Positions 2,149 to 40,142 of a DNA stretch of 45,552 nucleotides are shown piece after piece. The stretch is taken from the NCBI GenBank assembly GCA_022616275.1, contig JAKEFB010000305.1, positions 1 through 45,552 of the forward strand, given 5' to 3'. The stretch is from Chloroflexota bacterium (GTDB taxonomy: Bacteria; Chloroflexota; Anaerolineae; Promineifilales; Promineifilaceae). The notes under the pieces were generated by a model, which did not search any database, had not been told where the DNA came from, and worked only from the letters and a program-made list of their open reading frames with translations. Every line of letters starts with the position of its first letter. Position 1 is the first letter of the stretch. The position numbers were made by a program, and so were the translations under genes.

Positions 2149-4088
2149 TACGATTGCGGTTCGCTCAACAGTTGGTCAATCGCCTGCTGGAACTGGCCAA
2201 ACGGCAGCGCTCCACTGACCAGGTTGCCATTCAGGAAAAAGCCGGGCGTGCCGGTAATCCCCAGGTTAATCCCTTCCTGCAGGTCGGCCGTCACCCCCGC
2301 CTGGTGTTTGTTGCTGTTCAGACATTGGCTAAAGACCTCTACGTCCAGCTCGAGCGTTTCGGCAAAACCAATGAAGATTTCTGGGGCGTTACCCTTGCCG
2401 CCCCACTCCTGCTGCCGGGCAAAGAGCATGTCGTGCATCTCCAGGAATGCCTCCTGGTCCCTGGCGCAGCGGGCTGCCTCGGCCGCTTTGGCCGCCTGGG
2501 GGTGAATGGACGTCAGGGGGAAGTCCTTGAAAACGTAGCGGACCAGCCCTTGCTCCACGTACTCGGTCATAATTTGCGGGTACGTCTCATTAAAGTGGCG
2601 GACGCAGTAGGGGCACTGGTAGTCCGTATATTCAACAATCGTCACCGGCGCGTCCGGATCGCCAAGGACGTAGGCGTCGCCAATCGGCACGTCCACCGGG
2701 CCGGCCGGTTGTTGTGGCTGGGCCGGCTGCTGTTGCGGGGCCAGCGCCTCGGCCAGTCGCCCTTCCTCGGCCAGGCCGACGGCAATCTCGAAATGTTCAT
2801 ACGGCCGGGCCCCGCTAAGCTGATAGCCGTCAATGAAAAAGGCCGGCGTGCCGCCCACGCCCAGCGACTGGCCTTCCACCAGGTTGGCCTGGACGGCGTC
2901 GTCGTACCGGCCGCTGGCCAGGCAGGTCGAAAAGTCGTCAGCGTCCAGCCCCAGGCTGGCAGCAAAGTTCACAAAGACCGGAGTGGCCCCCACTCCCTGG
3001 CCGGCCCATTCATTTTGCCGGCTGAAGAGCAGGTCGTGCATCCCCCAGTAGGCGTCCTGCTCCCCGGCGCAGCGGGCGGCCACGGCCCCGGCCCGCGCGT
3101 CGCGGTGGATCTGGTCCAGGGGGAAGTCCTTCAGGATGTAATAGACCCGGCCGTTTTCAACCATCTCGCTGATGATCTGGGGCATGGTCTGGGTCGAGTG
3201 GCGCTGGCAGTAGGGGCACTGGTAGTCGGTAAACTCGATGATAGTGATCGGCGCGTCGGGGTCGCCCATCGCCGCGGCGAAATCGCCGGAGAAGCTGGCC
3301 GGCGTGGGTGGCGGGCCGGCCTGGGTTGGCTGCTGCGGCTGGGTGGCGGTGTTAGCCGCGCTGGCCAGTTCCTGGCCGCTCTGCACGGCGACAATGGCTT
3401 GGTCAAAGGCAGCCACCGGCTGGGCGCCCACGAAAAGCTGGCCGTTAATAAAGAAGCTGGGCGTGCTGTTAATACCCCGCTCCACGCCGGCATTCAGGTC
3501 GGCCTGCACCTGATCGCGGTACTTGTTGTTTTGCAGGCAGGCGTTAAAGGCCTCCATCTCCAGGCCAATCCGTTCGCCGTAGCGGCTAAAGACGCCGTTG
3601 GCGTTGGGGCTAGACCACTCGGCCGGGTTGGCAAAGAGCAGGTCGTGCATGGCCCAGTAGGAGGCGGCGCTTTGCTCTCCGGCGCAACGGGCGGCGTTGG
3701 CGGCCACGCTGGCCTGGGGATGAATGCTGGTCAGGGGGAAGTCGTAGTACACTACCACGGCCTGGCCGTTGGCCACCTGGTTGGCGTCCAGGGCCGGCAT
3801 CGTCTCTTTAGAAAAGCGGGCGCAGAAGGGGCATTGAAAATCGGAATACTCCTCAATAACGACGGGCGCGTCCGGGTTGCCCCGGTAGGCGTGGCCGTCG
3901 GTGGTAAAGCCGACCGGGACGCCCTTGCTGTCCGTTTCGGTCTGGTTGGCGTCAATTTCCAGCCCACCGGGTTGATCTCCGGCCACGGCCGCCTCGGGGC
4001 CGGCCGAACCGGGAGCCTGGCCGCAGCCCACAGCCGCCAGCAGGAAAAAGACCAGGGCCAGGGGCCGCAGGTATGGACGTGTTTTCAT
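2148..4088 (-). CDS. Lipoprotein with three tandem DsbA-like thioredoxin domains (thiol:disulfide oxidoreductase)
   Basis: ORF 2148..4166; likely start ATG at 4088 (MKTRPYLRPLALVFFLLAAVGCGQ, lipobox AVGC; GGAG RBS 8 nt upstream). Three repeated ~190-aa units each with CxxC (CPFC, CPYC, CPYC) and FxDFPL…IHP motif. Confidence 0.85.
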   Translation of the reverse strand: MKTRPYLRPLALVFFLLAAVGCGQAPGSAGPEAAVAGDQPGGLEIDANQTETDSKGVPVGFTTDGHAYRGNPDAPVVIEEYSDFQCPFCARFSKETMPALDANQVANGQAVVVYYDFPLTSIHPQASVAANAARCAGEQSAASYWAMHDLLFANPAEWSSPNANGVFSRYGERIGLEMEAFNACLQNNKYRDQVQADLNAGVERGINSTPSFFINGQLFVGAQPVAAFDQAIVAVQSGQELASAANTATQPQQPTQAGPPPTPASFSGDFAAAMGDPDAPITIIEFTDYQCPYCQRHSTQTMPQIISEMVENGRVYYILKDFPLDQIHRDARAGAVAARCAGEQDAYWGMHDLLFSRQNEWAGQGVGATPVFVNFAASLGLDADDFSTCLASGRYDDAVQANLVEGQSLGVGGTPAFFIDGYQLSGARPYEHFEIAVGLAEEGRLAEALAPQQQPAQPQQPAGPVDVPIGDAYVLGDPDAPVTIVEYTDYQCPYCVRHFNETYPQIMTEYVEQGLVRYVFKDFPLTSIHPQAAKAAEAARCARDQEAFLEMHDMLFARQQEWGGKGNAPEIFIGFAETLELDVEVFSQCLNSNKHQAGVTADLQEGINLGITGTPGFFLNGNLVSGALPFGQFQQAIDQLLSEPQS

Positions 4089-4251
4089 TCCGTATACTCC
4101 CACATGTTCGTCAAAACGGGCCGGGGTTGCCGAACGAGCCAACCAGGCCGGCCGGGCGGTGTGCAAGCTTCAATGTTCCGTGGGGTGGCAGGCAACACAC
4201 GGCCGCCCCGCAAGAATTATGGCATATTGGGAGGGCGGTCGCAAGGAGGAA

Positions 4252-8189: not shown

Positions 8190-8432
8190 TTTTTATCAAC
8201 CTTTGGTCCGGCCGTAGAAGTTCAAGCAAGCAACCAGTAGATTCAAGCTGTGGCCGGTCTCCGACCGGGCCACTACGATGATTATATCAGAATCTAACAG
8301 GTAATACGCAGGATTTTCGTCCCAGGTTGCTGACTGTCACCGAACAAATCGTGCGGGCTGTCAAAAATCATTCGTCACCGGCTGGCGTTTGTGTTAGACT
8401 TTACTATTCGATGTTTTTTGTCACCTGGTTCT

Positions 8433-9260
8433 ATGGTCAACAATCGCAACCTATGGCAACAATGGCGCGCTAGAGCGCCAGGGACGCTAACAATCTTCTT
8501 TTTGTTTACACTCCTGGTGACCTGGCTGGCGGCCGGCCGGCCGCTGGTCCAGGCCCAGGCTCAAAACGGCATTACCAGCCCGGTGCCGGGCGACGTGCTT
8601 TCCGGCCTCGTCGTCGTCCAGGGGACGGCCGCCGACCCCAATTTCTTGCGTTACGAGCTGGCCTTTTCCCGCGACGGCAGCGAGTGGATCGTCTTTGCCC
8701 AGGGCGACCAGCAGGTGGTGGGCGGCGCCCTGGCCGTCTGGGATACGACCGTTGGTCGCAGCGCCAACCGGCCTGTCTTTCCCGACGGTCTCTACCAGTT
8801 GCGGCTGCGGGTGGTGCGCCAGGACTACAACTACGGCGAGTACTACGTCAACGACCTCATCGTCGCCAACGACACGGCCACCCCCTCGCCCACGCCCACA
8901 GTGGACGGGCCGGCCGGCGCAACCACGCCCCGGCCGCAGCCCGGGCCCACGCTGCCGGCCACGTTCCAGGTCGCGCCTGGCCTGCTGCCGTCGCTGACGC
9001 CCTTCCCCACGCCAACCCGCCAGCCAACGCCGGCCAACCAGCCGCTCGACCCGGCCGGCAATAATCCGGGAGACGGCCTGGCGGAGCGGCCGGGTCTGCT
9101 GGAGCGTCTGACGGCCATAGACACCGGCTCATTCGGCCGGGCCTTCTGGCAGGGCGTGATCGTCGTCGGCTATGCCTTTGCCTTCCTGGCTTTCTACCTG
9201 CTGCTGCGGGCCATTGTGCGTCGCGTCTGGCGGCTGGTGTGGACGAGATTACAAAGGTAG
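8433..9260 (+). CDS. Hypothetical secreted protein with Pro/Thr-rich linker and C-terminal TM helix plus basic tail
   Basis: ORF 8391..9260 (GTG); likely start ATG 8433 giving signal peptide MVNNRNLWQQWRARAPGTLTIFFLFTLLVTWLAAGRPLVQAQA; C-terminus …VIVVGYAFAFLAFYLLLRAIVRRVWRLVWTRLQR. Confidence 0.6.
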   Translation: MVNNRNLWQQWRARAPGTLTIFFLFTLLVTWLAAGRPLVQAQAQNGITSPVPGDVLSGLVVVQGTAADPNFLRYELAFSRDGSEWIVFAQGDQQVVGGALAVWDTTVGRSANRPVFPDGLYQLRLRVVRQDYNYGEYYVNDLIVANDTATPSPTPTVDGPAGATTPRPQPGPTLPATFQVAPGLLPSLTPFPTPTRQPTPANQPLDPAGNNPGDGLAERPGLLERLTAIDTGSFGRAFWQGVIVVGYAFAFLAFYLLLRAIVRRVWRLVWTRLQR

Positions 9261-28652: not shown

Positions 28653-30809
28653 TCAGGATTGGGGCGTGTGAAAGCGCAGGGCCGGGTCGCCTAGCAGGTT
28701 AAAGGTGTGAATGACGTCCTTGAGAAATTCGTCGTCGGCTCCGGCGGTCTTGGCCATTTGCAGCGCCTCGCCCAACGTTTGCGCCTGGCCTTCCAGCAAG
28801 ACCTGGTAAAAGACCTCGGCCAGGGGGAGCTGCTGGATGGTCAGGGAGCGGCCGGAGGGGGCCACGGCCGCCACCACACCACCATCTTCGGCCCACAGCA
28901 ACGTTTCCGCCAGCGCGTCGGCGTCGGGATGGTTGAAGTAGCCGTTCAAGCAGGTGAAAGTGGTAAAAATGGGCAGGCGTTCCCCGTTAATGAGCGTCTC
29001 CGCATCCTCGGCCTGGAAGACCCGCTCGTCGCCCCAGACTTCTATGCTGCCGTGCCCGACGTAGTTGATAATACCCACCCCCTGGTTGAGGGCGCTAATG
29101 ATCGCGTCGCGGATCTCCTCGTTTTCAGACATGTACAGTTTTTGTGTCTCGTAGCCAATCTCTCCCAGGTCGCCGGCCAGGTCGTCGGAAGCTTCGTCGA
29201 AATCTTTTTCGTCGTCGGCCACCAGCAAGGCCCGGTTGAGCCACTCGGTTTCGGCTGCTCGTTCGTAGGCCAACGTCTTATTGACCATTGTCGCCAACTG
29301 GCCGGCGGTCTGGGCCGGAAAACGGCCGATGGCCAGCTCTGGGGATAGAGAGTTATCGTCGAAAATGGTGAACCAGGTGTCGCTGGCCACGTAACCGGCA
29401 AACTCGGTGTACACCAGGTAAGTAGGCAGCAAGTTCTGGTTTTTGCCCTGAGAAAAATTGTAAAGGTCGTAGGAAGCGTCGCCGACCAGGAGGACAAAGC
29501 GTGGGGCCGGCTCCCACTCGGCCACGGCGTAAGCCAGGAAGTCGCGAATGGCCTGTGGCGTCCGCCGGCCGTAGCCAAACTCGTCAAAGACCTGGCTGGC
29601 CAGGACGGCTTCGACCTGCCAACCCTGCAAGCGGCGGTACTCCAGCAGTGGGTCGAGGAGTGGTAAGAAACCCTCGACGTCGGCGACGATGGCCACGTAA
29701 TCGGCGCCCCGGCCGCCGCCGGTCAGCGGCTCCCAGGATGGGGCCGGGCTAATCTCCGGCCGGATGACGTGCTCCTGGAGAAAAACAAAATAGGCCCGCT
29801 CCTGGCCCCGGCCGGCAAAGGCCAGTTCTTCGCCGGCGGCCTTGGTTCCGGCCAGTCGGACCGGCGCGGCCGGGTCGGTCACGTCAAATACCAGCGCATC
29901 GCCGTCCACTCCGGCCACGCGCAGGGTAGGGGCGCTGCTGCGGAACCAGAGGCTATCGTCCTGGACCTCCAGGCGGCCGTCGTAATCCAGGCGGACCCAG
30001 TCAATGTACAGCGCTTCGCCGGCTGCCCCGGTATCTCCAGGGGCGTTAATGGTCAGAACGTTCCCCGCAGGGAGCAGGGCGCCGGCCTCCAGGGAGACAG
30101 TAATGGTTTTCTGGGTAATACCGTCCCAATAATAATCGTCCGGGAGTTTGGCGCCGTTAAGCAGAAGCTCAATGTGGTGGTCGGGCTCTTGCTGGGCCCG
30201 GTTGTTGGACCAGATGCGGATCGTAAGCTGGCCGGAGCCACCGGCCGGCTGGATGCCTTCCAGGGCCACGTCCAGCGAATTAGGGGCAAATAACCGTTTA
30301 CCGAGCCAGACGTCGTCGCCGGCCGCCTGGGCCAGGAACGTCTCGTTCTCCTCCCACGTTTGCCTTCGCCAGGCCACGGATTCGGCCTCTTCGCCAGGAG
30401 CGGCCGGGTCCTCCTCCATCAACTGGCCCCGCCCAGGCGCCAGCCAGTAAACCGCCGGCGCGTCCAGGGTGTCGGTCACCGGTTGGGCGTAAAAATAAAG
30501 CGAAGCATTGCGCCCCTCGCCGGCCACATAAAAAGGCACCGGCTGCCCGTCGCGAGTCAACTGCAACGCGCCGGCCGAAAGTCCCTCCACGGGCAGGTTG
30601 GCCTGGCGCAGGTCGCCGGCCGTCACAACGGCGATACCAGATTGATACACGGTCAGCCGCAGGGCCTGGGGCGCTTCACCCAAGGGTAGCGGCTTGATAT
30701 CCAGGGGATCGTCTTGGATACGGCTGCCCAGGAAAACGTAGGCGGCCGCGCCAAAGAAAAAAATGGTCAGACCGGCCAGGCCAGCCAGGATCAGGTGTTG
30801 TCTATTCAT
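28653..30809 (-). CDS. Peptidase C25 (gingipain) family protein
   Basis: ORF 28653..30929; start ATG 30809 (MNRQHLILAGLAGLTIFFF signal/TM anchor); catalytic-domain motifs …NYVGHGS…W… and …TCLNGYF…. Confidence 0.8.
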   Translation of the reverse strand: MNRQHLILAGLAGLTIFFFGAAAYVFLGSRIQDDPLDIKPLPLGEAPQALRLTVYQSGIAVVTAGDLRQANLPVEGLSAGALQLTRDGQPVPFYVAGEGRNASLYFYAQPVTDTLDAPAVYWLAPGRGQLMEEDPAAPGEEAESVAWRRQTWEENETFLAQAAGDDVWLGKRLFAPNSLDVALEGIQPAGGSGQLTIRIWSNNRAQQEPDHHIELLLNGAKLPDDYYWDGITQKTITVSLEAGALLPAGNVLTINAPGDTGAAGEALYIDWVRLDYDGRLEVQDDSLWFRSSAPTLRVAGVDGDALVFDVTDPAAPVRLAGTKAAGEELAFAGRGQERAYFVFLQEHVIRPEISPAPSWEPLTGGGRGADYVAIVADVEGFLPLLDPLLEYRRLQGWQVEAVLASQVFDEFGYGRRTPQAIRDFLAYAVAEWEPAPRFVLLVGDASYDLYNFSQGKNQNLLPTYLVYTEFAGYVASDTWFTIFDDNSLSPELAIGRFPAQTAGQLATMVNKTLAYERAAETEWLNRALLVADDEKDFDEASDDLAGDLGEIGYETQKLYMSENEEIRDAIISALNQGVGIINYVGHGSIEVWGDERVFQAEDAETLINGERLPIFTTFTCLNGYFNHPDADALAETLLWAEDGGVVAAVAPSGRSLTIQQLPLAEVFYQVLLEGQAQTLGEALQMAKTAGADDEFLKDVIHTFNLLGDPALRFHTPQS

Positions 30810-30817
30810 GGGCGACG

Positions 30818-31831
30818 TTAACTCTTGCGACGGGACAGCCAGTACCAGGTGGTAGCGCCACCGCCCAGAACCAGCAGTACGCCGGAGATGAAAACCAACA
30901 GACCCACAGTGGCGCTGCGGTTGAGCCATTCGCCCTCTTGTCCTGAGGTCTGGTTATCGCCGGCGCTCTCCTGGCCATTGCCGCCAATGGGCGAGGCGGC
31001 GATAGCCGTGGCGGTAGCCGACCGGGCCGAGGTCACCACCTCAGCCACCGTATCCGGCGGGTTGCCGGGAGCGCCCAGGCTGGTGACGCTGACCGGGTCC
31101 TGGGAATCGCCAGTGCCGGCCGCCACTTCCTCCGCTGGCGGCTCCACGGTCTCGCCGGGGCCAGTCGCCGGCAACGCCGGCAGGCTGTCGTTTGGTTGGT
31201 TGCCAACCGGTGAGGCTGCCGGTGGGGCGCTTTGCGCCGGCCGGGTGGGGGTGGCGCTGGACAGCGCCGGCGCGGCCGTGGCCGACGGGGCAGACGTGTT
31301 GGCCGGGGGGCGGGTGGTGGTGGGCGTCGCTTCGGCCGTGTCGCCGGGCTGGACCGTTGGGCTGGGCGTGGGGGTCCGGGTGGGCGTGGCGGTGTTGTTG
31401 CCGGGAGGCGGCTCGGTGGGAATCGTGCTCCCGCCGCTCAACGAGGCTGTGTCTGGGAGGGAGAACTCACTGTTGCCGTAATTATCTACAGACTCCAGCC
31501 AGTAGGTGTAAACAATGTTGCCCTGGACGGCGGAATCCTCCCACTCGTAAAGAGCGCCTGTCGGTCCATTACAGACCTGGCAGGGAATGAGGGTATTGCC
31601 GTTAATTTTGATGGCGTCGTCCAGGTCGCCGGTCTCGCTGCGATGAATGTTAAAGCCGAGGTGGTCAATTTCTGAAGCGGTTTCCCATTCCAGGGTAATG
31701 GCGCTCGGCCCGCTCTGGGCGTCAAAATAGAGTAACTCGACGTTGGCCATGGCCAGGTCCAACGATAAGGCGGCCGCCAGCAAGATCACGACAGGGACCA
31801 GCAGCCACTTTAACTGTTTAAAAGATGACAT
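30818..31831 (-). CDS. Secreted FN3-like domain protein with Pro/Thr/Ala-rich stalk, C-terminal TM helix and RRKS tail
   Basis: 337 aa; signal peptide; domain ITLEWETASEIDHLGFNIHR…YTYWLESVDNYGNSE (paralog of 38514..38876); C-term VGLLVFISGVLLVLGGGATTWYWLSRRKS. Confidence 0.7.
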   Translation of the reverse strand: MSSFKQLKWLLVPVVILLAAALSLDLAMANVELLYFDAQSGPSAITLEWETASEIDHLGFNIHRSETGDLDDAIKINGNTLIPCQVCNGPTGALYEWEDSAVQGNIVYTYWLESVDNYGNSEFSLPDTASLSGGSTIPTEPPPGNNTATPTRTPTPSPTVQPGDTAEATPTTTRPPANTSAPSATAAPALSSATPTRPAQSAPPAASPVGNQPNDSLPALPATGPGETVEPPAEEVAAGTGDSQDPVSVTSLGAPGNPPDTVAEVVTSARSATATAIAASPIGGNGQESAGDNQTSGQEGEWLNRSATVGLLVFISGVLLVLGGGATTWYWLSRRKS

Positions 31832-32444
31832 TCTCTACTCCTCTACTCCCTGTTGCCGGCTGGCTGGCCAGGCCGGCGGCAACGGCCAACAGGGCAGCCC
31901 ACCCGTACAACAGGCGGCGCACCAGGCGGGTGGGCAGGTTGGGCAGTCCCTGGGCGGCAAACCGCCCGCCGGCCATCAAAGATGGCCAGTTGTCCTGCCC
32001 CTCATTGTAAACCGGCGCGCTAAAAAGGCGAATATCCAGCCTGGCCAGGCCGGCCAGGGAGTGGTTTAACCGGCGGCCGGGCCCCTCGCTCAGGCTCAAG
32101 AGGCGGTTCTGGCGGCGGCGGGCCACCACCCGGCCAACCAGGCTGGCTTCGGCGACTGGCCGGTCAAAGTGCCGTTGCCGGTCTCCCCGCGTCACCAGGC
32201 GGCGCCGGCCGTTCTGCTCCAGGCAACCCCAGTAGCGGTGGGTCACCAGCTCGCCCTGGCCCATCACCACGATCACGTCACCGGGCTGCAGTTCCTCCGG
32301 CCGGGCCGGGGCAATGCCGATCTGGTCGCCCCGGCGCACCAGGGGGGCCATGCTGTTGCTGGCAATGGTCAGGAAAGGCAACTGGCCACGGGCCATCGTT
32401 TCGCGCAGCAGCTCGGCCAGGAGCGACGGTTCGACGTTGGCCAT
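31818..32444 (-). CDS. Peptidase S24/S26 (signal peptidase I-like) family protein
   Basis: 208 aa; SNSMAPLVRRGDQI Ser-box resembling SGSMEP/GDSM of S26/S24; hydrophobic segment near C-terminus. Confidence 0.6.
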   Translation of the reverse strand: MANVEPSLLAELLRETMARGQLPFLTIASNSMAPLVRRGDQIGIAPARPEELQPGDVIVVMGQGELVTHRYWGCLEQNGRRRLVTRGDRQRHFDRPVAEASLVGRVVARRRQNRLLSLSEGPGRRLNHSLAGLARLDIRLFSAPVYNEGQDNWPSLMAGGRFAAQGLPNLPTRLVRRLLYGWAALLAVAAGLASQPATGSRGVENVIF

Positions 32445-32452
32445 ACCCTTCT

Positions 32453-35400
32453 TTACGGCTTGTTGATCGCCGGCAGGAAGGTTTCCAACACCTGCTCGGG
32501 AATATGGAGCTTCATGGCCGGGTCGCCCAGGAGGATAAAAGTATCCTGCAGATCGTCGTAGATGCCCGGCGGCGCGTTGTTAAACAGATTCAACTTACCC
32601 CCGTAGGTGGCATGGCCCAGCACATGATCGCCGTTGACGAAGACAGTCGTGTAAAACCCTTCCAGGAGGTAATCGTGCCCGGTCTGGACCTGGAAACCGG
32701 TCGGGGCGAAGCTGGCTACGGCCCCGGCCCCGTTCAGTTTCATCAATGTTTCCGACAGGCCTTTGCTTGTCCCAGGCGTATGGTACCAGCCTTCCAGGCA
32801 GGTCATGGGTAGCATGATTGGCGTGCGGTCGCCGTTGTTCAGGTTCAGGGCCAGGTTGGTGTCGAAAAATGTTTCCCCGCCCCAGACCTGGGTGCCGCTA
32901 TGGCCGGTGTAGATGACGAAGTTCTGGCCCAGGTTGAAATGGGCAACGAGGCGCTCTTGCATGTTGTTGCCGGGAGGGGTGTTAATCATGGTTGCGTAAT
33001 AAGGCTCAATCACCGGGTAGGTAGCATTGGGGAAGCAGGCAGCAGGGGCATAATAGAGCCGGTGCAGCAGTTGGCCGGCCGGGAAGTGGTTGGCAATAAA
33101 GTTATTGGTGACGGCAAAAAAATCACCGGCCAGGTCTGGAATACAAGTTGGCGGTGGATTTCCATTGGGGACGATGCTGTTATCGGCGACGAAGAAGTGC
33201 CGGCCGTGCCAGCCGGGGCTCAACGGGCTTGTCTCGTAGGTGATGATCTTATTGACCATCACCGTCAATTCGGCCGGGGTCTGGACCGGCAGGCGGCCGA
33301 GGAGCATGTCGGCCAGGTCGTTGCCGTCGAAATCTACGTACTGGTTATCGGCCGCCGCTTCGCCGAGCTTGCTGTCAACGCCGGAGCGCAGGTAGACGGG
33401 GACCCTATTGCTGGTCCCGTTTTGGCCGAGCACGTTGCGGTGGTCGTAGCTGGCGTCGCCGGCCAGGAGCACGTATTCCCGGTCGCCTTGCCAGGAGTTG
33501 TAGGCGAATTCGAGGAAATCTTTGATCGCTTCCGGCGCATAGAGGCCATAGCTCCACTCGTCAAAAATGTCCTGGACGTAGACGGTTTTTACCGCCAATC
33601 CCTGGCCGGCGCGCAGCGTGCGCAACGGAGTCAGGGCGGCGTCCAGGCTGGGGTCGGTGATGATGATGTAGTCGGCCGTATGGCTGGTGCTGCTCAACAG
33701 GGGGCTGGGCAGCGTATCCTTGACAATGGCCAGCGGGCTGAGACGGGCGCCGGCTGTGGTCAGTTGGTAAGCTGTTGGCCCCGATGTCGTGCGGTGGAAG
33801 GTCGCAACATCACCGGCGGCCGGTACCACCTGGATGGTCGGGTTCAACGGATCGGTCACGTTGTAAATCTGGACGTTGCTCCCAACCGTGAAGCCGCTGG
33901 TCGCAAAGGTCCATGTTCCGGCCGTGGGTTGGCTGAAGGCCAGGCGATTGCTGACGGCCACAAATTGCTGGCGGGGGGTAACTTCCACCCAGTTGACCAG
34001 CATCCGGTGGGCGTTGTTCGTGGGGTCGCCGTCATTGTCCAGAGCTTTCACGTGCATAATATTCGGGCCGTCGAGTACTGCCGAAGAAGGCGCGTTGACC
34101 TGGTAAAGGTAAGAAACGTCGGCCGTGCCCGCACCGGTAAACTGGCCGGTGCCAAGCAGCGTGCCGTTGAGCCGCACTTCAAAGACGTGCAGATCGTTGA
34201 GCAGGTGGCCCCATAGCTCGACGGCTACAGGCACGTTGTATACGCCGCCGGCCTTGTTATTCACGGTAAAAGTAACCGTCAGGGTGTCCTCGTAGGGGGG
34301 GGCGGGGGGCGGGGGGGGTGGCTGGTTGCCGGCGAGAGGGCCGCCCCAGAACCAGTGGTCGGTCAGGTCGCTCTTAGGGATCGGGGAGAGGTAGCTTGTG
34401 TCTGTTTCCAGGTGCAGCAAGGGCGAATGGTAATCAGGCGTCGTTCCAGGGGCGGAGTCGCTGGCTGCAGTTATGCGTAGCCCGTTTGGCCCGCCGGTGG
34501 AGTAGGTGAGCCAATAGACGTTAGTCGTGGTCTCCTGGGTCTTGATGGCCTGGCCGTAAAAGGCAATGGTATCGCTGCTGCCGAACGTGCCGTCACCGCC
34601 GTCTTCGACGCGAATGCGGATTTCCTGGTCCAGGTAGCACATCCGGATCTTGCTGGAAGGTACGCTGCCGGGGAAGCCCTGGGCAGCCAGTTGGGCGTGG
34701 CTGAGGGCATAAATGCCAGACTGGTCAAGGGTGATGCGGTAAGCGTTGGCGTCCATGCAGGGGGAGATTTGCGGCGGGGCCTGGCTCATATCGGGGGCTT
34801 CACGCCAGGCGCGGGCCTGCTCGTAGTTGAGCAGGTGGTCACCGAGAATTTTCTCAAAAGCGGGGCCTTCCGGCCGGGAACCGGCCGGGGTGGGGCGGCC
34901 GTCAGGATAATCAAAGCGGACGTGGATGCGCAGGCTGGTGTAGACCGTGAGGCGCTGTTGGGCCGGGTTGGCCAGCACCGGCCGGACCCAGACCTGGACC
35001 ACCCGTTGGTCGCGCAAACGGGAGGGCTGGCTTAGTTCCACCGGCCCGGCCGGGAACAGGCTGTCCTGGCTATAGGCGGCCTCGTCAACCGGGTAGCTGG
35101 TGGCGAATTCAGGGACGGAGTTGGGATTATCCCAATCGTAGGAAACGAGTTCCTGGTGGGCGGCCGGCAGCACGGCCACCCCCTCAAGCTGGAAGCTGTC
35201 GGCCTCCAGCAGGGAAACGGATGGCGCTGCCCCAGGCGGCAAGGCGACCAGGAAACTGGTGTGAGGTAAATCTGGCCGGCCGGGCTGCCCCAGATTTCCG
35301 TAACCGGGAAGGCGGATGCGCTCGAAACGGCCGTCCCCGGTCGTCACGGCCATTCGCTCCAGGGCCGGGGGAAGCACCTCGAAAATCAGGCCTTCGCCGG

Positions 35401-35554
35401 TGGATTCAATCACAGTGACACCATCGCGGTCGGGCTGGCCCGGCCCGGCCCCGGCTGTTTCCGGCCGAGGGAGCAGCAAAAAAAACAAAATGACAAGCAG
35501 GCCACCGCCGAAAACGAAGAGATGGCGGGAGTGGTGATAAACGGAAAAACGCAT
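32453..35554 (-). CDS. Large peptidase C25 (gingipain) family protein with N-terminal propeptide-like and C-terminal catalytic domain
   Basis: ORF 32453..35620; start ATG 35554 (MRFSVYHHSRHLFVFGGGLLVILFFLLL); …VIYTGHSGTQVWGGE… and …PMTCLEGWYH… motifs. Confidence 0.8.
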   Translation of the reverse strand: MRFSVYHHSRHLFVFGGGLLVILFFLLLPRPETAGAGPGQPDRDGVTVIESTGEGLIFEVLPPALERMAVTTGDGRFERIRLPGYGNLGQPGRPDLPHTSFLVALPPGAAPSVSLLEADSFQLEGVAVLPAAHQELVSYDWDNPNSVPEFATSYPVDEAAYSQDSLFPAGPVELSQPSRLRDQRVVQVWVRPVLANPAQQRLTVYTSLRIHVRFDYPDGRPTPAGSRPEGPAFEKILGDHLLNYEQARAWREAPDMSQAPPQISPCMDANAYRITLDQSGIYALSHAQLAAQGFPGSVPSSKIRMCYLDQEIRIRVEDGGDGTFGSSDTIAFYGQAIKTQETTTNVYWLTYSTGGPNGLRITAASDSAPGTTPDYHSPLLHLETDTSYLSPIPKSDLTDHWFWGGPLAGNQPPPPPPAPPYEDTLTVTFTVNNKAGGVYNVPVAVELWGHLLNDLHVFEVRLNGTLLGTGQFTGAGTADVSYLYQVNAPSSAVLDGPNIMHVKALDNDGDPTNNAHRMLVNWVEVTPRQQFVAVSNRLAFSQPTAGTWTFATSGFTVGSNVQIYNVTDPLNPTIQVVPAAGDVATFHRTTSGPTAYQLTTAGARLSPLAIVKDTLPSPLLSSTSHTADYIIITDPSLDAALTPLRTLRAGQGLAVKTVYVQDIFDEWSYGLYAPEAIKDFLEFAYNSWQGDREYVLLAGDASYDHRNVLGQNGTSNRVPVYLRSGVDSKLGEAAADNQYVDFDGNDLADMLLGRLPVQTPAELTVMVNKIITYETSPLSPGWHGRHFFVADNSIVPNGNPPPTCIPDLAGDFFAVTNNFIANHFPAGQLLHRLYYAPAACFPNATYPVIEPYYATMINTPPGNNMQERLVAHFNLGQNFVIYTGHSGTQVWGGETFFDTNLALNLNNGDRTPIMLPMTCLEGWYHTPGTSKGLSETLMKLNGAGAVASFAPTGFQVQTGHDYLLEGFYTTVFVNGDHVLGHATYGGKLNLFNNAPPGIYDDLQDTFILLGDPAMKLHIPEQVLETFLPAINKP

Positions 35555-35831
35555 AAAGTAATTACCCCTAGACAGCAACAAGGGCCAGATAATTGGTTTG
35601 ATTATCCAGCCCTTGTCCACTTAGTAAGGGTAGACACCCTCCTGAGAGCTGTATACGGTTGTCGTCACCAGGGACTACAAACCCTGTTTTCTACCACTTA
35701 CCTGGTCCACGATTTACCCAACAACGCACTAAGCCAGCCAACTCTGGGGGAAATCGCCGCAAAGCTGCACGAATGCAGCCTGGAGTAGCTGGGCGTTGTC
35801 AGGGTGAGTGGGTCGAAGAAAGAAAAAATTC

Positions 35832-35972
35832 TTAGCTGCTGGTAACCGTGCAGTTGTCGCCCGTGCCGGTCTTACCGTTGACAGGGTCCTGAGCATCGCA
35901 GGTACCGGCAATGCTTTCCATCAATTCACGATGGACAACAGCGGGCTTTTCATAAACTTTCTTTTCGTTCAT
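35832..35972 (-). CDS. RiPP precursor peptide candidate A1 (46 aa)
   Basis: Not in ORF track (too short). Manual reverse translation: MNEKKVYEKPAVVHRELMESIAGTCDAQDPVNGKTGTGDNCTVTSS; GGAGGA RBS 6 nt upstream on minus strand; 39 C-terminal residues identical to A2. Confidence 0.7.
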   Translation of the reverse strand: MNEKKVYEKPAVVHRELMESIAGTCDAQDPVNGKTGTGDNCTVTSS

Positions 35973-36016: not shown

Positions 36017-36181
36017 CTAGCTGCTGGTAACCGTGCAGTTGTCGCCCGTGCCGGTCTTGCCATTGACAGGGTCCTGGGCGTCGCACGTGCCGGCAATGCT
36101 TTCCATCAATTCACGATGGACGACGGCCGGTTTTTCGTAAGCCTCTTTTTGCTCGTCAGTGGGATTAGTTGGATTAGGCAT
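36017..36181 (-). CDS. RiPP precursor peptide candidate A2 (54 aa)
   Basis: Manual reverse translation: MPNPTNPTDEQKEAYEKPAVVHRELMESIAGTCDAQDPVNGKTGTGDNCTVTSS; start overlaps 3' end of radical SAM gene by 8 nt (GGAGTG upstream). Confidence 0.7.
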   Translation of the reverse strand: MPNPTNPTDEQKEAYEKPAVVHRELMESIAGTCDAQDPVNGKTGTGDNCTVTSS

Positions 36182-37253
36182 GAGTCACTCCTTTTTCTAA
36201 ATATGCCTGGCGTCGCAGCCGCGCTTCGCGGTAGGCAACTGAGGAGCAGCCAAGCATGTCACCATCTTCAAACGCTGCCGTACCATGGCAGCGCACACAA
36301 AACTGGCGAAGCTCGCAAGTGGCGCAAACAGGTAAGTTGGCCAGATTGAGGTTGGTGGTCTGCTCCCACACCGGCGATTCTTTCCAAATCTGGTGGAGTG
36401 GCGCCTGGCGCACGTTGCCGGCCGAGACACGAGCGCCCACACAGGTGTAAATCTCACCATAGGGGCCAATGTCCAGGCTGTTCATGCCAATACTACAAAA
36501 CCGAAAATCGTCGTTATAGGGGTACAGGTGCCAGGTCTCCGGGGAAACGCGTTCTCGCAAAAAATCCAACAATTGGTCGTCTGTCGGCCGGTGTTTTAGG
36601 GGCGAAAGGTCGCCGGTATGTTTGGGGATAATGGTCAGGTCGTATTGAAAGGTAATACCCAGGTCAGCGGCCAACTGTTTCAGAGCCTCAATTTGATGGA
36701 TGTTTTCCTTCATGACCGGCGTTTTAATAATGCAACGAACGTTACGCTCTAAAAGCAATTTGACCGCGCGGAGAGTCAGGTCAAACGAGCCTGGCACCTG
36801 AGTAATACCGTCGTGCGTTTCCGCATCTACCCCATAGACGCTTAACTCAACGACGACGGGTTTAATGGCTGCTATCTTATCAGCAACAGGGGGTTTGATC
36901 AAGATACCGTTGGTAAAGAAGCGAACGGCAAAACCCTTCTTGCGGGCGTACCCGGCGATCTCAAAAATATCCTTGCGCAAGAACACTTCGCCGCCGGAAA
37001 AGCTGATTGTCAGCGCCCCCAACTCGGCCAATTGATCAATAACCCCTTTGGCTTCCTCGGTCGTCAGCTCGCCCGGCAACTGAGAGCCTGGGGGCAGCAC
37101 GTCCAGATAACAATGGGTGCAGCGCTCGTTGCAACGGTAAGTGATTTCCCAATGGGCGGACAACAGGCGGTGTTCTTTGCGCGTGCGCCGCAAAATTTCT
37201 TTGTAAGCGTCGGGGCGGGTATTGGTGTTAACGTCTACGTACTGATCGGTCAT
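36174..37253 (-). CDS. Radical SAM enzyme with C-terminal SPASM-like Cys-rich domain (RiPP maturase candidate)
   Basis: 359 aa; CNERCTHC (CxxxCxxC) at residues ~41-48; C-terminal cysteines …FCSIGMNS…YTCVGARV…LPVCATCELRQFCVRCHG…. Confidence 0.85.
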   Translation of the reverse strand: MTDQYVDVNTNTRPDAYKEILRRTRKEHRLLSAHWEITYRCNERCTHCYLDVLPPGSQLPGELTTEEAKGVIDQLAELGALTISFSGGEVFLRKDIFEIAGYARKKGFAVRFFTNGILIKPPVADKIAAIKPVVVELSVYGVDAETHDGITQVPGSFDLTLRAVKLLLERNVRCIIKTPVMKENIHQIEALKQLAADLGITFQYDLTIIPKHTGDLSPLKHRPTDDQLLDFLRERVSPETWHLYPYNDDFRFCSIGMNSLDIGPYGEIYTCVGARVSAGNVRQAPLHQIWKESPVWEQTTNLNLANLPVCATCELRQFCVRCHGTAAFEDGDMLGCSSVAYREARLRRQAYLEKGVTHA

Positions 37254-37256
37254 TGC

Positions 37257-37547
37257 TTACGCTTCCCTTGCATCACTGAAAACTAACACCCGGTGGTTGG
37301 CCAGTTGAGTCAGGAAATCAACCACGTCTTGCCGGGCCTGTTCGGCCGTCACCTCATATTCGGCCACAATTACCCCGGCAATGTCGGCCACAGTGCGGCT
37401 ACCATCGGCCAACTCAAAAACACGCGATCCGACACTGTTCAAAACGTTGACTTCACTGGCGTCGGATAAAATGAGAACGGCTTCACCGTCTATAACCCGA
37501 CCGGCCGTCTGAGGATGCGGCCTGGGGTATTTCTGCCATATCTCCAT
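37257..37547 (-). CDS. PqqD-family protein (RiPP recognition element / peptide chaperone)
   Basis: ORF 37257..37613; likely start MEIWQKY… at 37547; …GEAVLILSDASEVNVLNSVGSRVFELADGSRTVADIAGVIVAEYEVTAEQARQDVVDFLTQL… typical PqqD. Confidence 0.7.
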   Translation of the reverse strand: MEIWQKYPRPHPQTAGRVIDGEAVLILSDASEVNVLNSVGSRVFELADGSRTVADIAGVIVAEYEVTAEQARQDVVDFLTQLANHRVLVFSDAREA

Positions 37548-38376
37548 GAATAACCTTCCAAAAACCATCGTCACGCTTGAAGTGAAGTTCCTGCACTGGG
37601 ACCAGCCGGGCAATCTGATTGCAGACCGAGAGCAGCGTGCCGCTCAAGCTTAGCTCCCGGACGACAAAGGGCGAGGCTGCTACCAGGTCAGCCACTCCTT
37701 TGACGTGGGGAATGGGTTTCAGATAATGGGAAACATCCTGCTTCAAGCGAAAAAGCCCTCTCAATGGCGCTTGTAAATTGGCGCGCGGCGCATCGGAAAA
37801 CTCGCCTCGGAAAGGAACGCCATACAGAGTACAGCCTTCTTCGCCGGCGCGAATGATCACCAGGTCGTCACTGACCACGTGGGCCGCCCTGGCCGCCAGA
37901 CGGGAAGTGGTGGTCTTGCCCGCGCCGCTGGGGCCAAAGAAAACGTAACCCTGGCCATCCCGGATCACGCCGGCGGCGTGCAGCAGCAAGGCTTGGTTTT
38001 TCAGACACAACCAGGCATAGAGAACCCGCAGGAAGTTCTCTACCTGAGCTTCGGGAGCCATTTCCAGGACGCCGCGGCCGGCGACCAGATCTACTTCGCC
38101 CTGTTCCTGGTAGGAACAGTAGACCAGGCGATTGGCTTCGTAGCTGGCCTGAATGATCCAGGCCCCGGGTTCTGGTGTAATGAACAGCGCGCCAGGCGTA
38201 ACTTTTAAGGTAACGGTAATAAGCGGCGGCTCTGTAGGGCTAAGAAACTCCTGGTAATGGCTGTAGAGCCGGCCAACAACGGCCTGGTCATCCGTCTCCA
38301 AAGCAACGACAAAATCAGCGATGTTGATGAGAAAACGATGGCGACTTTGTTCGTTAATTGTCAAGAGAACCCTCAC
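37483..38376 (-). CDS. HprK-related kinase-like protein (HPr kinase C-terminal-like P-loop domain)
   Basis: 297 aa, GTG start; …LLLHAAGVIRDGQGYVFFGPSGAGKTTTS… Walker A in HprK-C-like context. Confidence 0.65.
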   Translation of the reverse strand: MRVLLTINEQSRHRFLINIADFVVALETDDQAVVGRLYSHYQEFLSPTEPPLITVTLKVTPGALFITPEPGAWIIQASYEANRLVYCSYQEQGEVDLVAGRGVLEMAPEAQVENFLRVLYAWLCLKNQALLLHAAGVIRDGQGYVFFGPSGAGKTTTSRLAARAAHVVSDDLVIIRAGEEGCTLYGVPFRGEFSDAPRANLQAPLRGLFRLKQDVSHYLKPIPHVKGVADLVAASPFVVRELSLSGTLLSVCNQIARLVPVQELHFKRDDGFWKVIHGDMAEIPQAASSDGRSGYRR

Positions 38377-38513: not shown

Positions 38514-38876
38514 TTATCCTCCGGCCGTCAAAGCAATAGGGTCCGTGCGGGTGGCGTTGCCGTTACGGTCAATGGTTTCGAGCAGGTAATAGTAAGTCTT
38601 GCCCCGGACTATGTCTCGGTCTACGTAGGTATGCCGGTCACCAATAAAGGGATCAGCCGCCGGCGGAATTAGCTCGTTATTAACTTTAACGAACTCACCA
38701 TCCGCTGCTTCGGCCCGATAAAGGTTGAAACCAATAATGTCCAGCTCGCTCTCTGTTGTCCAGGTGATAGTAAGCTCGGCCGGCCGCAGGACACAGGCTA
38801 CCAGGCCAGCCATACTGGTAGTGAAACAAAGGAAGGTGAGCAGGAGGTGATAGACAGATGATAACTTCTTGAACAC
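38514..38876 (-). CDS. Small secreted FN3-like domain protein (paralog of N-terminal domain of 30818..31831)
   Basis: Within ORF 38514..39080; probable GTG start ~38876 giving signal peptide VFKKLSSVYHLLLTFLCFTT…; LTITWTTESELDIIGFNLYR…YYYLLETIDRNGN. Confidence 0.55.
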   Translation of the reverse strand: MFKKLSSVYHLLLTFLCFTTSMAGLVACVLRPAELTITWTTESELDIIGFNLYRAEAADGEFVKVNNELIPPAADPFIGDRHTYVDRDIVRGKTYYYLLETIDRNGNATRTDPIALTAGG

Positions 38877-38899
38877 GTGTGGATTGTAAAAAAGGAGTT

Positions 38900-38958
38900 G
38901 CAAACTCGCAACCTTGCAAACTCGCAACCTCGCAACCTCGCAAACTCGCATACTTGCC
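38900..38958. repeat. Octanucleotide tandem repeat (GCAAMCTY)x7 in divergent intergenic region
   Basis: GCAAACTC GCAACCTT GCAAACTC GCAACCTC GCAACCTC GCAAACTC GCATACTT GCC. Confidence 0.8.
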
Positions 38959-39008: not shown

Positions 39009-40142
39009 ATGAAGATTGCTTTTGTCTCCGCCCTTGATCCCCGCTATCACGTTGATTACTTTTCGGGTATCCCCTACCATCTGTTTCGGGCGCTGGCCCG
39101 GCGGGTGGAGATTGTGCCTGTGCCTGTGGCGGCCGAAAGGCCACCGGCCTGGTATCGCCTCTACACCCGGCTGCGGCGAAGGCTGGCCGGCCGGCCGGAC
39201 ACCTGGGGGCTGCGGCCGGGTGTGCTACAGCGCCTGGCCCATGGCGCGGCCGCGGCCGTCGCTCAGTCTGGGGCCGACGTCGCTCTATCTATTGGCCAGG
39301 GCTGCCTGGCCTTTTGGGCCGGGCCGGTCCCGATGGCCTCGTTTTCTGACGTGCTCTATGGCGGTCTCAACCCCTTTCCCGACCAGCAAGGGCAGCCGCG
39401 CCCCCTGGCCCAAGCCTATCGGGAGCAACTGGCTCGCATTGCCCAACGAGCCGCCGATAACGCCGTCCGCGTTTTTATTACGTCCGAATTTGCCTTGCAA
39501 GGAGCGTTGGCCTTTGGCACGCGCCTGCCCCGGGAAAAGGTAGTGATCACCCAGATAGGGGCTAACTTCGAGGAGTGGCCGCCAGCTCCCGGGCCACGCC
39601 GGCCGCCGCCGCCGTTAAAACTATTGTGGGTGGGTACTGGTTGGGCTGGCAAGGGTGGCGAAGATTGCCTGGCCGTCCTCGACGCTCTGCACCGGGCCGG
39701 CGTGGAAGCTGAGTTGAGCCTGGCCGGCCGGGTCCCGTCCGGGCTGGCCCGTCCCCACGTCGTCTACCACGGTTTTCTGCATAAGGATGTGCCCGAGGAA
39801 CAGCAGCGCCTGTTGGCCCTTTACCGGGAGGCGCACCTGTTCCTGCTGCCCACCCGCAAGGACTTCACTCCCTGCGGGCTGGCCGAAGCGGCGGCGATGG
39901 GCCTGCCGGCCGTCACCACGCTGGTGGGTGGCATTCCCGGCATGTTTGCCGCCGACGAAGTGGTTCTGCTAGATATAGCTCACTATCGAGAGCAGGCTCC
40001 GGCCGCCATTAACCAACTGCTTCAGGACGGCCGGTTGGAAGAAATGGCCGGCAAAGTCCGCCACCGTTTCGAGTCTACGCTCAATTGGGATACGATTGCT
40101 GCTATAATAATTAGTGAGTTAGAACGTGCTCTTAAGAGGTGA
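39009..40142 (+). CDS. Glycosyltransferase family 1 (GT4-type)
   Basis: ORF 38877..40142; conserved-looking start MKIAFVSALDP at 39009; C-terminal GT1 region …LLPTRKDFTPCGLAEAAAMGLPAVTTLVGGIP…. Confidence 0.8.
   Translation: MKIAFVSALDPRYHVDYFSGIPYHLFRALARRVEIVPVPVAAERPPAWYRLYTRLRRRLAGRPDTWGLRPGVLQRLAHGAAAAVAQSGADVALSIGQGCLAFWAGPVPMASFSDVLYGGLNPFPDQQGQPRPLAQAYREQLARIAQRAADNAVRVFITSEFALQGALAFGTRLPREKVVITQIGANFEEWPPAPGPRRPPPPLKLLWVGTGWAGKGGEDCLAVLDALHRAGVEAELSLAGRVPSGLARPHVVYHGFLHKDVPEEQQRLLALYREAHLFLLPTRKDFTPCGLAEAAAMGLPAVTTLVGGIPGMFAADEVVLLDIAHYREQAPAAINQLLQDGRLEEMAGKVRHRFESTLNWDTIAAIIISELERALKR

Follow-up and report, generated by a model that had tools for sequence, protein, structure and literature searches.

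Gingipain-type C25 peptidases and a probable RiPP-like radical SAM peptide unit in one gene cassette of Anaerolineae

Peptidases of family C25 are, to our knowledge, understood almost only from the gingipains of Porphyromonas and from PorU, the sortase of the type IX secretion system (T9SS). Two such peptidases, here called C25-A and C25-D, are encoded in a 45,552-nucleotide stretch of DNA from a Chloroflexota bacterium of the family Promineifilaceae (GenBank assembly GCA_022616275.1, contig JAKEFB010000305.1, positions 1 to 45,552; the whole stretch is referred to as the window). They are accompanied by genes for an S24/S26-like serine peptidase (S26-like) and for a protein composed of a fibronectin type III (FN3) domain, a stalk and a transmembrane (TM) helix (FN3-stalk-TM). 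The four genes very probably belong to a cassette that resembles those for ribosomally synthesized and post-translationally modified peptides (RiPPs) and that includes a radical S-adenosylmethionine (rSAM) enzyme and short precursor peptides. The combined cassette is conserved in Anaerolineae and is apparently undescribed, as literature searches on C25 peptidases with rSAM/PqqD units, on ScmC/SynChlorMet and on gingipain in Chloroflexi found nothing on it. The DNA stems from a metagenome-assembled genome and is also present in GCA_973789855.1; its nearest relatives carry the label Candidatus Promineifilaceae.

Among proteins of solved structure, PorU (PDB 6ZA2) is the closest to both C25 proteins (1.1e-19 and 2.5e-13). 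A further likeness is that many candidate client proteins end in a beta-sandwich of about 100 amino acids, as T9SS cargo does. The cassette enzymes differ from PorU in their predicted N-terminal helix anchor, in their Chloroflexota host, in the rSAM/peptide unit that is always attached to them, and in falling short of the PorU equivalog level (212.6 and 260.4 bits against a cutoff of 420 for NF033707). The window and the cassettes examined contain neither T9SS genes nor Por_Secre_tail matches. The gingipains RgpB and Kgp resemble C25-A in prodomain and catalytic fold; unlike them, C25-A has no haemagglutinin/adhesin regions and no C-terminal domain (CTD), and possesses PorU-like middle domains and a predicted membrane anchor.

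On the peptide side, the closest described systems are SynChlorMet (ScmC/D/E/F) and the sactipeptide and ranthipeptide systems, with which the cassette shares an ScmC-type protein, a discrete PqqD, an rSAM/SPASM enzyme and a short Cys-containing precursor encoded directly after the maturase. It differs from SynChlorMet in scoring far below the respective models (ScmC 24.7 against 125, ScmD 28.4 against 100, ScmE/F 94 against 400), in having one rSAM enzyme rather than two, and in a precursor family that matches no model. We know of none of these systems with a C25 or S26-like peptidase or with FN3 surface proteins. HprK-like kinases and PqqD also occur in paeninodin-type lasso peptide clusters, whose leaders have a similar Y-x-x-P motif; a leader of the form K-K-x-Y-x-K-P-x-(V/L), a stand-alone PqqD and an HprK-like kinase are the points of likeness. 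Neither a lasso cyclase (Asn-synthetase-like) nor a B2 protease is present among the ten cassette genes, which have an rSAM/SPASM enzyme and an S26-like peptidase instead. Lanthipeptide operons encode extracellular, prodomain-bearing proteases (NisP, LicP) that finish leader removal, and a secreted, anchored zymogen protease within the peptide's own operon is what they have in common with the cassette; these are S8 subtilisin-like enzymes working with a dedicated exporter, whereas the cassette has C25 enzymes and no exporter. The S26-like protein shares its Ser/His/Asp set and fold with SEC11/SipW (S26B), and SEC11C and SEC11A are its best sequence matches; it differs in lacking the N-terminal anchor (14 of 14 members) and in having a C-terminal tether or being fused ahead of another protein's signal peptide. 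Each part is of a known kind (C25, S26B fold, RiPP recognition element (RRE)/rSAM/SPASM, FN3), and all equivalog-level tests fail.

A ten-gene cassette and its peptide unit

The earlier note on this DNA had described four tightly packed minus-strand genes ending at position 35554. The four genes are real, as the open reading frames (ORFs) agree with public-assembly gene calls, made independently on identical sequence, that give the same four products; in the order C25-A, S26-like, FN3-stalk-TM and C25-D they are spaced by an 8-nt gap, a 14-nt overlap and a further 8-nt gap. The operon continues beyond that position. Six further minus-strand genes lie upstream (38514..38951 to 35832..35972), which makes a cassette of ten minus-strand genes, from 38951 to 28653, with the four genes as its 3′ half. 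From 5′ to 3′ the cassette encodes a small FN3 lipoprotein, an HprK-like kinase, PqqD, the rSAM/SPASM enzyme, two precursor peptides, C25-A, the S26-like protein, FN3-stalk-TM and C25-D (Table 1).

The rSAM protein carries the motif CNERCTHC (CX3CX2C) and a C-terminal Cys-rich SPASM domain, and its NCBIfam matches, all below cutoff, are to AhbD, mycofactocin, StsB, ScmE/F, PqqE and AlbA. PqqD matches the lasso-type PqqD (6.2e-9) and ScmD (1.4e-6) models; its start codon is uncertain, with an ORF that extends to 37613 and a public gene call that starts at 37442. The kinase matches HprK_rel_B (2e-15), HprK_rel_A (4.5e-6) and ScmC (1.3e-5), again below cutoff. The unit thus has the features of RRE-dependent rSAM/SPASM systems: an rSAM enzyme with a SPASM domain, a PqqD-like element and, next to them, a short precursor whose leader is conserved and whose core varies. 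It is read as a RiPP-like peptide-maturation cassette of this type, in which the peptide would be modified.

In precursor 1 the leader ends …KEAYEKPAVVHRELMESIAGT and is followed by the core CDAQDPVNGKTGTGDNCTVTSS. Precursor 2 is a tandem copy in which the C-terminal 40 amino acids are identical, and over the 40 shared codons the two genes differ at 11 synonymous and no nonsynonymous positions, which points to purifying selection on the precursors. In the family alignment the leader reads K-K-x-Y-x-(K/A)-P-x-V-x-x-V-x-L…(I/V)-L-x-x-C, with Y, P and C invariant (alignment A6), and the variable core contains two or three Cys. A lipobox reading of the …L-x-x-C junction was rejected, the leader being charged and not hydrophobic. 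An ORF of the family follows every rSAM gene for which enough flanking sequence is available. A profile search retrieved 119 clusters of 45-78 amino acids, all of them unnamed, and the few organism labels are Chloroflexi/Anaerolineae.

The wider distribution was assessed by scanning one genome per species with the FN3 domain (a five-sequence alignment), which gave 263 relatives, almost all from Anaerolineae and often several per genome. Seventy-eight loci were kept and their six-frame ORFs were searched with the window proteins; about a quarter carry C25, S26-like, PqqD, rSAM and ScmC-like genes. The rSAM unit is linked to the propeptide-bearing C25-A in all 17 loci with enough flank (the window, L008, L012-L015, L023, L027, L030, L032, L044, L050, L070 and L089-L092), and an annotated Joint Genome Institute (JGI) contig outside this set shows the same linkage.

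Two layouts can be recognized. Layout (a), seen in the window and in L012-L014, has the gene order given above, with one or more precursor genes, and continues downstream with an Xer-like gene, a DUF6812 gene and a Ser/Thr kinase gene. In layout (b) (L015, L023, L027, L030, L032, L044, L050, L056, L070 and L087) a secreted FN3-ending protein, sometimes an S26-like gene, PqqD, rSAM, precursor, kinase, C25-A and sometimes an S26-like gene follow one another, with about 4 nt between the kinase gene and that of C25-A. Four long contigs that had been picked from the peptide alone (L089-L092) all show layout (b), with the FN3-ending protein directly upstream of PqqD. The window cores end in Ser, the residue phosphorylated by paeninodin-type kinases, whereas most layout (b) cores lack a terminal Ser. 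One locus, L009 (9573-10576), has window-like flanks (Obg, NadD … Xer-like, DUF6812, Ser/Thr kinase) that enclose only PqqD and S26-like genes and no precursor; the cassette therefore behaves as a variable insert at that site, and the pair is either a remnant of it or a minimal unit. Another, L013 (DASRZI010000158.1), is labelled Candidatus Zixiibacteriota and contains a full Promineifilaceae-type cassette with its flanks in identical order (E-values down to 0), so that the label is probably a binning error.

Peptidases, the FN3 partner and a proposed pathway

Both C25 proteins match Pfam Peptidase_C25 (PF01364) at 2e-73 (C25-A) and 3.5e-86 (C25-D), with scores of 248 and 290 bits where the curated cutoff is 23. 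They also match the NCBIfam T9SS_sortase model (PorU, NF033707) at 7.5e-63 and 2.8e-77, respectively, over some 500-600 residues, the likeness to PorU extending N-terminal of the catalytic domain. It had been proposed that the two proteins be checked for a catalytic His/Cys dyad and a propeptide. The dyads are intact: in C25-A the His lies in YTGHSG and the Cys in PMTCLEG, in C25-D they lie in YVGHGS and FTCLNG, both pairs are in register with H211/C244 of RgpB (1cvr) and with the PorU dyad (6za2), and the dyad is kept in 28 of 28 orthologues examined. A propeptide is present in C25-A (Propeptide_C25, 9.6e-21), where it is related to the prodomains of Kgp and RgpB (about 7e-6 and 8e-6), and is absent from C25-D. 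The S1-pocket Asp of RgpB has no reliable mapping onto either protein. Because an N-terminal helix is predicted to anchor both enzymes, they are expected to act outside the membrane.

The S26-like protein matches Pfam Peptidase_S24 (1.2e-6) and, just over the cutoff of 51.85 bits, the NCBIfam archaeal signal peptidase model sigpep_I_arch (TIGR02228; 53.1 bits). Its Ser31 (SMAP), His69 (THR) and Asp88 (GD) are invariant among 14 family members and align with the Ser/His/Asp of the human SEC11C and SEC11A catalytic subunits, its best solved relatives by profile. A structure model (predicted local distance difference test (pLDDT) 84.5) matches the fold of SEC11C best and also those of the LexA C-domain and S. 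pyogenes SipA. Matches to TIGR02228 and SEC11 begin just past the anchor of these references, and all 14 members are devoid of a hydrophobic segment at the N-terminus. The sole hydrophobic segment is C-terminal (178-194) and has three Arg on its N-flank. In P0015, L022, L072 and L081 the S26-like protein is fused ahead of the FN3-stalk-TM signal peptide, at a junction of the form …RR…h-region…VWA|AV… with K/R flanking the helix on its peptidase side. The prediction from the missing N-terminal anchor, the charge distribution and the four fusions is a catalytic domain tethered to the membrane on the cytoplasmic side. The suggestion of a dedicated signal peptidase is accordingly borne out as regards the endoplasmic reticulum (ER)-type Ser/His/Asp set and the TIGR02228 match, and not as regards function, since a peptidase so placed could not act as a classical signal peptidase. 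In L009, L010, L027 and L056 the S26-like gene adjoins PqqD, an arrangement that we take to resemble the split B1/B2 arrangement of lasso clusters; given this recurrent adjacency, a role as leader peptidase is the simplest inference.

FN3-stalk-TM consists of a signal peptide, an FN3 domain (residues about 30-133), a Pro/Thr/Ala-rich linker of roughly 170-200 amino acids, a TM helix (305-328) and the basic tail WYWLSRRKS, as the earlier note had described. Its N-terminal domain finds only weak fn3 and Pur_ac_phosph_N matches in Pfam; the model (pLDDT 94) is a seven-strand sandwich whose top structural matches are FN3 domains. To the same note the C-terminus had looked like a tripartite sorting signal. 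The hydrophobic helix followed by a basic cluster is present, and a helix with a few basic residues is all that the subfamily tails share: in the tails of at least 14 relatives the segments adjacent to the helix are conserved within subfamilies only, with no pre-helix motif common to the subfamilies, and hence the first part of such a signal is missing. An internal LPATG in the window protein was considered as a sortase motif and set aside, as it lies about 85 amino acids from the helix and P0002 and P0003 do not have it. A second protein with a similar end, at 8391/8433..9260, indeed combines a signal peptide with a stalk, a TM helix and a basic tail; it is unrelated and without the cassette-type FN3 domain, and is encoded 19 kb from the cassette between YqiJ/SPFH-type genes and Mfd. 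Since an unrelated protein shares this build, the build is generic in this organism.

Linkage between C25 genes and proteins with such tails had been named as a check, and it is found throughout. Every FN3-stalk-TM gene that can be evaluated abuts a C25-D-type gene (the window, L007, L008, L013, L014, L022, L072, L081 and the P0008 contig), and the contigs of two further relatives, L019 and L035, break off with weak C25 matches at their ends. There is one FN3-stalk-TM protein per cassette. The protein fits better as a dedicated partner of C25-D than as a sortase substrate; less probably, it may be a pilin-like 1:1 substrate.

Tentatively, and with every step inferred, it is proposed that the peptide may be matured in the cytoplasm, cut at the inner membrane face and then processed outside by anchored C25 peptidases and their FN3 partners. 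PqqD would bind the leader at K-K-x-Y-x-K/A-P-x-V-x-x-V-x-L, the rSAM/SPASM enzyme would cross-link the core with its two to three Cys, and the kinase may add a phosphate. The first leader cut would be made by the S26-like peptidase, held at the cytoplasmic membrane face by its C-terminal helix and, in some relatives, fused to FN3-stalk-TM, and the two N-terminally anchored C25 peptidases would complete processing outside the membrane. C25-A, as a putative zymogen with a gingipain-type prodomain, could by analogy play the part of NisP, and C25-D would form a fixed pair with FN3-stalk-TM, here read as a stalked adaptor or docking partner and not as a sortase substrate. Other proteins with related FN3 domains (the small lipoprotein, and choice-of-anchor K proteins elsewhere) might be surface partners or further C25 substrates.

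Several points weigh against this proposal. No peptide transporter is found among the ten cassette genes, which leaves unexplained how the peptide would get to the C25 enzymes outside the cell. These enzymes are merely presumed to act on the peptide, and no cleavage motif, apart from a frequent Lys at -7, is conserved at the leader/core junction. For the S26-like protein, the cytoplasmic placement is derived from charge and hydropathy rules. In L022, L072 and L081 the S26-like/C25-D/FN3 module has no rSAM gene within 10 kb. Finally, the obligatory FN3 proteins of the subtype described below, the choice-of-anchor K proteins included, are left unexplained.

WET-type domains and rival explanations

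The FN3 domains of the cassette proteins belong to a subtype, here named WET, with the signature …L-x-W-E-T-x-S-E-x-D-x-x-G-F-x-x-Y-R…. In most loci, secreted proteins of 200-2800 amino acids, several per genome, have WET as their last folded domain. Four classes of ending follow it. In 31 proteins there is nothing or a short basic end; about 25 end in P(S/T)AVxLxxFxA, a short Gly/Ala/Leu-rich helix and KRRK/RRRR (for example L087 3271-4992, 9875-10411 and 10490-14185; L048 7328-10417 and 10667-11938; L063 5680-6987; L043 1523-2626); about nine have an extreme C-terminal YLPL(V/I)xR, or more widely (Y/F)LP(L/T)(I/V)x(R/K); and the fourth class, which includes the window FN3-stalk-TM, has a helix after a long linker. 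The second class looks like a tripartite sorting signal. The YLPL-type ending may be a second C-terminal signal; examples such as …YLYLPLVLRP and …VYLPLILR occur among L065 6869-10342, L046 9245-10351, L010 1-678, L072 1-8394, L089 15763-18129 and P0019.

The strand-A consensus of 106 WET domains (P74 T66 A71 V82 x L86 x x F89 x A82) is identical to the motif of the PSAV-type tails, which therefore consist of an orphan first strand, a helix and a basic cluster. By alignment, the FN3 domain of the small cassette lipoprotein and of three orthologues starts at strand B (window 38514..38951, L012 3128-3568, L013 1049-1465 and L014 2768-3196, with the lipobox-like sequences LVAC, LAGC and LTSC among them), so that the mature lipoprotein would be without strand A. 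In layout (b), the proteins directly upstream of PqqD are homologous to one another (30-67% identity) and contain a choice-of-anchor K/THxN-PEP-CTERM-like domain, above the NCBIfam cutoff, followed by a WET domain; L027 565-1839 (=P0007), L089 6398-8428, L091 6841-8064 and L050 672-1970 are of this kind. Choice-of-anchor domains are defined by standing before LPXTG, PEP-CTERM or T9SS signals, depending on the lineage (bioRxiv 10.1101/2023.03.06.531300). In the choice-of-anchor K proteins the WET domain holds the position of such a signal.

Some C25 proteins (L030, L037 and L039) themselves end in a WET domain. The domain has no match among T9SS CTD models, and no NCBIfam model matches the precursor peptides, the tails or the WET domain. 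A search of 1.84 billion representatives with the WET profile gave 98,025 matches, led by giant multi-repeat proteins; since the profile detects generic FN3 repeats, this search is uninformative on the subtype or its tails. Next to tail-bearing proteins there are genes for MFS and FtsX/MacB transporters, histidine kinases, a UbiA-family protein and two proteins of 7-9 helices, and no exosortase, archaeosortase or other known sorting enzyme was found among these neighbours. The two multi-helix proteins, of 307-311 amino acids with 7-9 predicted helices, lie in two syntenic loci (L054 6120-7040 and L067 5745-6677, both on the minus strand). Neither Pfam nor NCBIfam gives a match for them, and in size and topology they would be suitable candidates for an intramembrane processing enzyme.

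How far the peptidase genes and the RiPP-like unit belong together bears on every reading. That they are fortuitous neighbours without functional relation can hardly be credited, as they are linked in 17 of 17 loci in two gene orders, at loci ranging down to about 30% identity and with gaps of a few nucleotides, a synteny that argues strongly against chance even though the S26-like/FN3/C25-D module can occur without a nearby rSAM gene and L009 keeps only PqqD and S26-like genes. The earlier note had C25-A and/or C25-D acting as a transpeptidase that would cut off the helix and tail of FN3-stalk-TM and anchor the protein to the envelope, with the S24/S26 protein as a dedicated signal peptidase. 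The strict 1:1 adjacency of the FN3-stalk-TM and C25-D genes, the intact dyads of the PorU-like enzymes and the helix and basic tail of all subfamily members favour such a transpeptidase, and S. pyogenes SipA, one of the fold matches noted above, sets a precedent for a signal-peptidase homologue encoded within a sortase/pilin operon. It is nevertheless improbable in view of the missing pre-helix motif, the single such protein per cassette in place of a substrate family, the predicted cytoplasmic S26-like domain, the remote and unconserved LPATG, and the generic build that the unrelated 8391..9260 protein shares. From the sortase-like surface-processing interpretation, what survives are the intact, anchored, PorU-like C25 enzymes and the C25 linkage; the tail motif, the signal-peptidase role and the operon extent are not supported.

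A different kind of sorting would centre on the WET domain, with the PorU-like C25 enzymes as sortases or processing peptidases for the many Anaerolineae secreted proteins whose last folded domain is WET and which have one of the first three endings listed above, and with the rSAM peptide as an accessory (cofactor, acceptor or regulator). The best argument for a sorting or processing role is the choice-of-anchor K proteins with WET in the signal position, to which may be added the C-terminal place of WET in large secreted proteins, the roughly 25 tripartite-like ends, the C25 proteins that end in WET themselves, and the lack of any known sorting enzyme beside the tail-bearing proteins. Only 3 of 27 tail-bearing proteins are encoded within 10 kb of a C25 gene, however, and because the tail motif is the canonical strand A of the FN3 domain, its conservation may be structural. 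In P0014, WET precedes a genuine T9SS CTD and therefore is not itself a CTD. The main weakness is the invariable rSAM/peptide unit, which has no role in any known sorting system, and on balance this explanation is somewhat unlikely. A more far-reaching form, an Anaerolineae-specific C-terminal sorting system, is unlikely: here membrane-anchored PorU-like C25 enzymes would cleave the WET domain or the strand, helix and KRRK tail and attach cargo (choice-of-anchor K proteins, giant adhesins) to the envelope, the rSAM peptide being an essential acceptor, cofactor or licensing signal. In the type V pili of Bacteroidota, cleavage of lipoprotein pilins by gingipain (C25) triggers donor-strand polymerisation. 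By analogy, the strand-A-less lipoprotein might be completed, after a C25 cut, by the PSAV-type strand of another WET protein. The lipoprotein and its three orthologues without strand A, the extra orphan strand A before the helix of other WET proteins and the constant presence of C25 peptidases agree with strand exchange; yet the fit of the analogy is pattern matching, layout (b) cassettes have no strand-A-less lipoprotein and the rSAM unit is given no role, all of which make it very improbable.

Coordinates, neighbouring genes and significance

Table 1. Genes of the cassette in the window, listed from 5′ to 3′ on the minus strand
Feature	Position	Strand	Remarks
Small WET-type FN3 lipoprotein	38514..38951	-	145 aa as called; first cassette gene; WET profile 8e-24, profile positions 14-100 only
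HprK-related, ScmC-like P-loop protein, putative peptide kinase	37483..38364	-	GPSGAGKTT; Pfam PF27840 ScmC
PqqD-family peptide chaperone (RRE)	37257..37547	-	Pfam PqqD 5.7e-15
Radical SAM/SPASM peptide maturase	36174..37253	-	Pfam Radical_SAM 2.2e-23, SPASM 6.5e-7
Precursor peptide 1, 54 aa	36017..36181	-	GGAG ribosome-binding site; precursor hidden Markov model (HMM) 5.6e-19
Precursor peptide 2, 46 aa	35832..35972	-	AGGAGG ribosome-binding site; precursor HMM 6e-20
C25-A, 1033 aa	32453..35554	-	Signal-anchor helix, gingipain-type propeptide, PorU-like middle domains, C25 catalytic domain
S24/S26-like serine peptidase, ER/archaeal type, 208 aa	31818..32444	-	Ser31, His69, Asp88; C-terminal helix 178-194
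FN3-stalk-TM protein, 337 aa	30818..31831	-	Signal peptide, WET-type FN3, linker, TM helix, basic tail
C25-D, 718 aa	28653..30809	-	N-terminal membrane anchor, PorU-like region, C25 catalytic domain, no propeptide

The spacer between precursor 2 and C25-A (35555..35840, minus strand; 278 nt) has a predicted fold of -105 kcal/mol (z = -3.55 against shuffles) and a 17-bp hairpin just 5′ of the C25-A start. A sequence block (…CTCAGGAGGGTGTCTACCC…) recurs in L012 and L013; the structure is not conserved in relatives, and an Rfam scan of the window gave no match. Next to the cassette, a trio of genes (window 24812..28527) is kept in L007, L009, L013 and L014. The gene at 27523..28527 encodes an Xer-like protein whose N-terminal SAM-like domains are good and whose catalytic domain matches weakly; that at 26960..27469 encodes a DUF6812 protein, and that at 24812..26947 a Ser/Thr kinase ending in an N_BRCA1_IG domain. 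On its other side, the gene at 39009..40142 encodes a glycosyltransferase. Envelope-polysaccharide genes (Bac_transf, epimerase, NTP_transferase, Wzz and low-molecular-weight (LMW) phosphatase) neighbour the cassette in the L089-L092 flanks, which also hold NTP_transf_5 genes and giant cadherin/Big_9 adhesins of 2000-3100 amino acids. Elsewhere in the window, two adjacent ORFs (22891..23538 and 23638..24108), each with a match to the ISAZ013-type DDE transposase family, look like a split or frameshifted insertion sequence, and a 672-amino-acid protein with three tandem DsbA/thioredoxin-like domains (Thioredoxin_4, 1e-105) is encoded at 2148..4166 on the minus strand, adjoining a molybdopterin oxidoreductase-domain protein.

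The cassette places C25 peptidases in another phylum, one abundant in sludge and sediments, and there they are fixed members of an rSAM peptide cassette. As a small, defined gene set it is amenable to co-expression. An ER-type signal-peptidase fold that works from the cytoplasmic side would be unusual whether the peptide or the FN3-domain proteins are the substrates of the C25 enzymes. If the peptide is the substrate, the C25 enzymes would constitute a new class of leader or maturation protease, acting on a family of Cys-cross-linked peptides with at least 119 members. If the FN3-domain proteins are the substrates, the cassette would represent a new surface-sorting pathway and would explain how Chloroflexota display choice-of-anchor proteins and adhesins.

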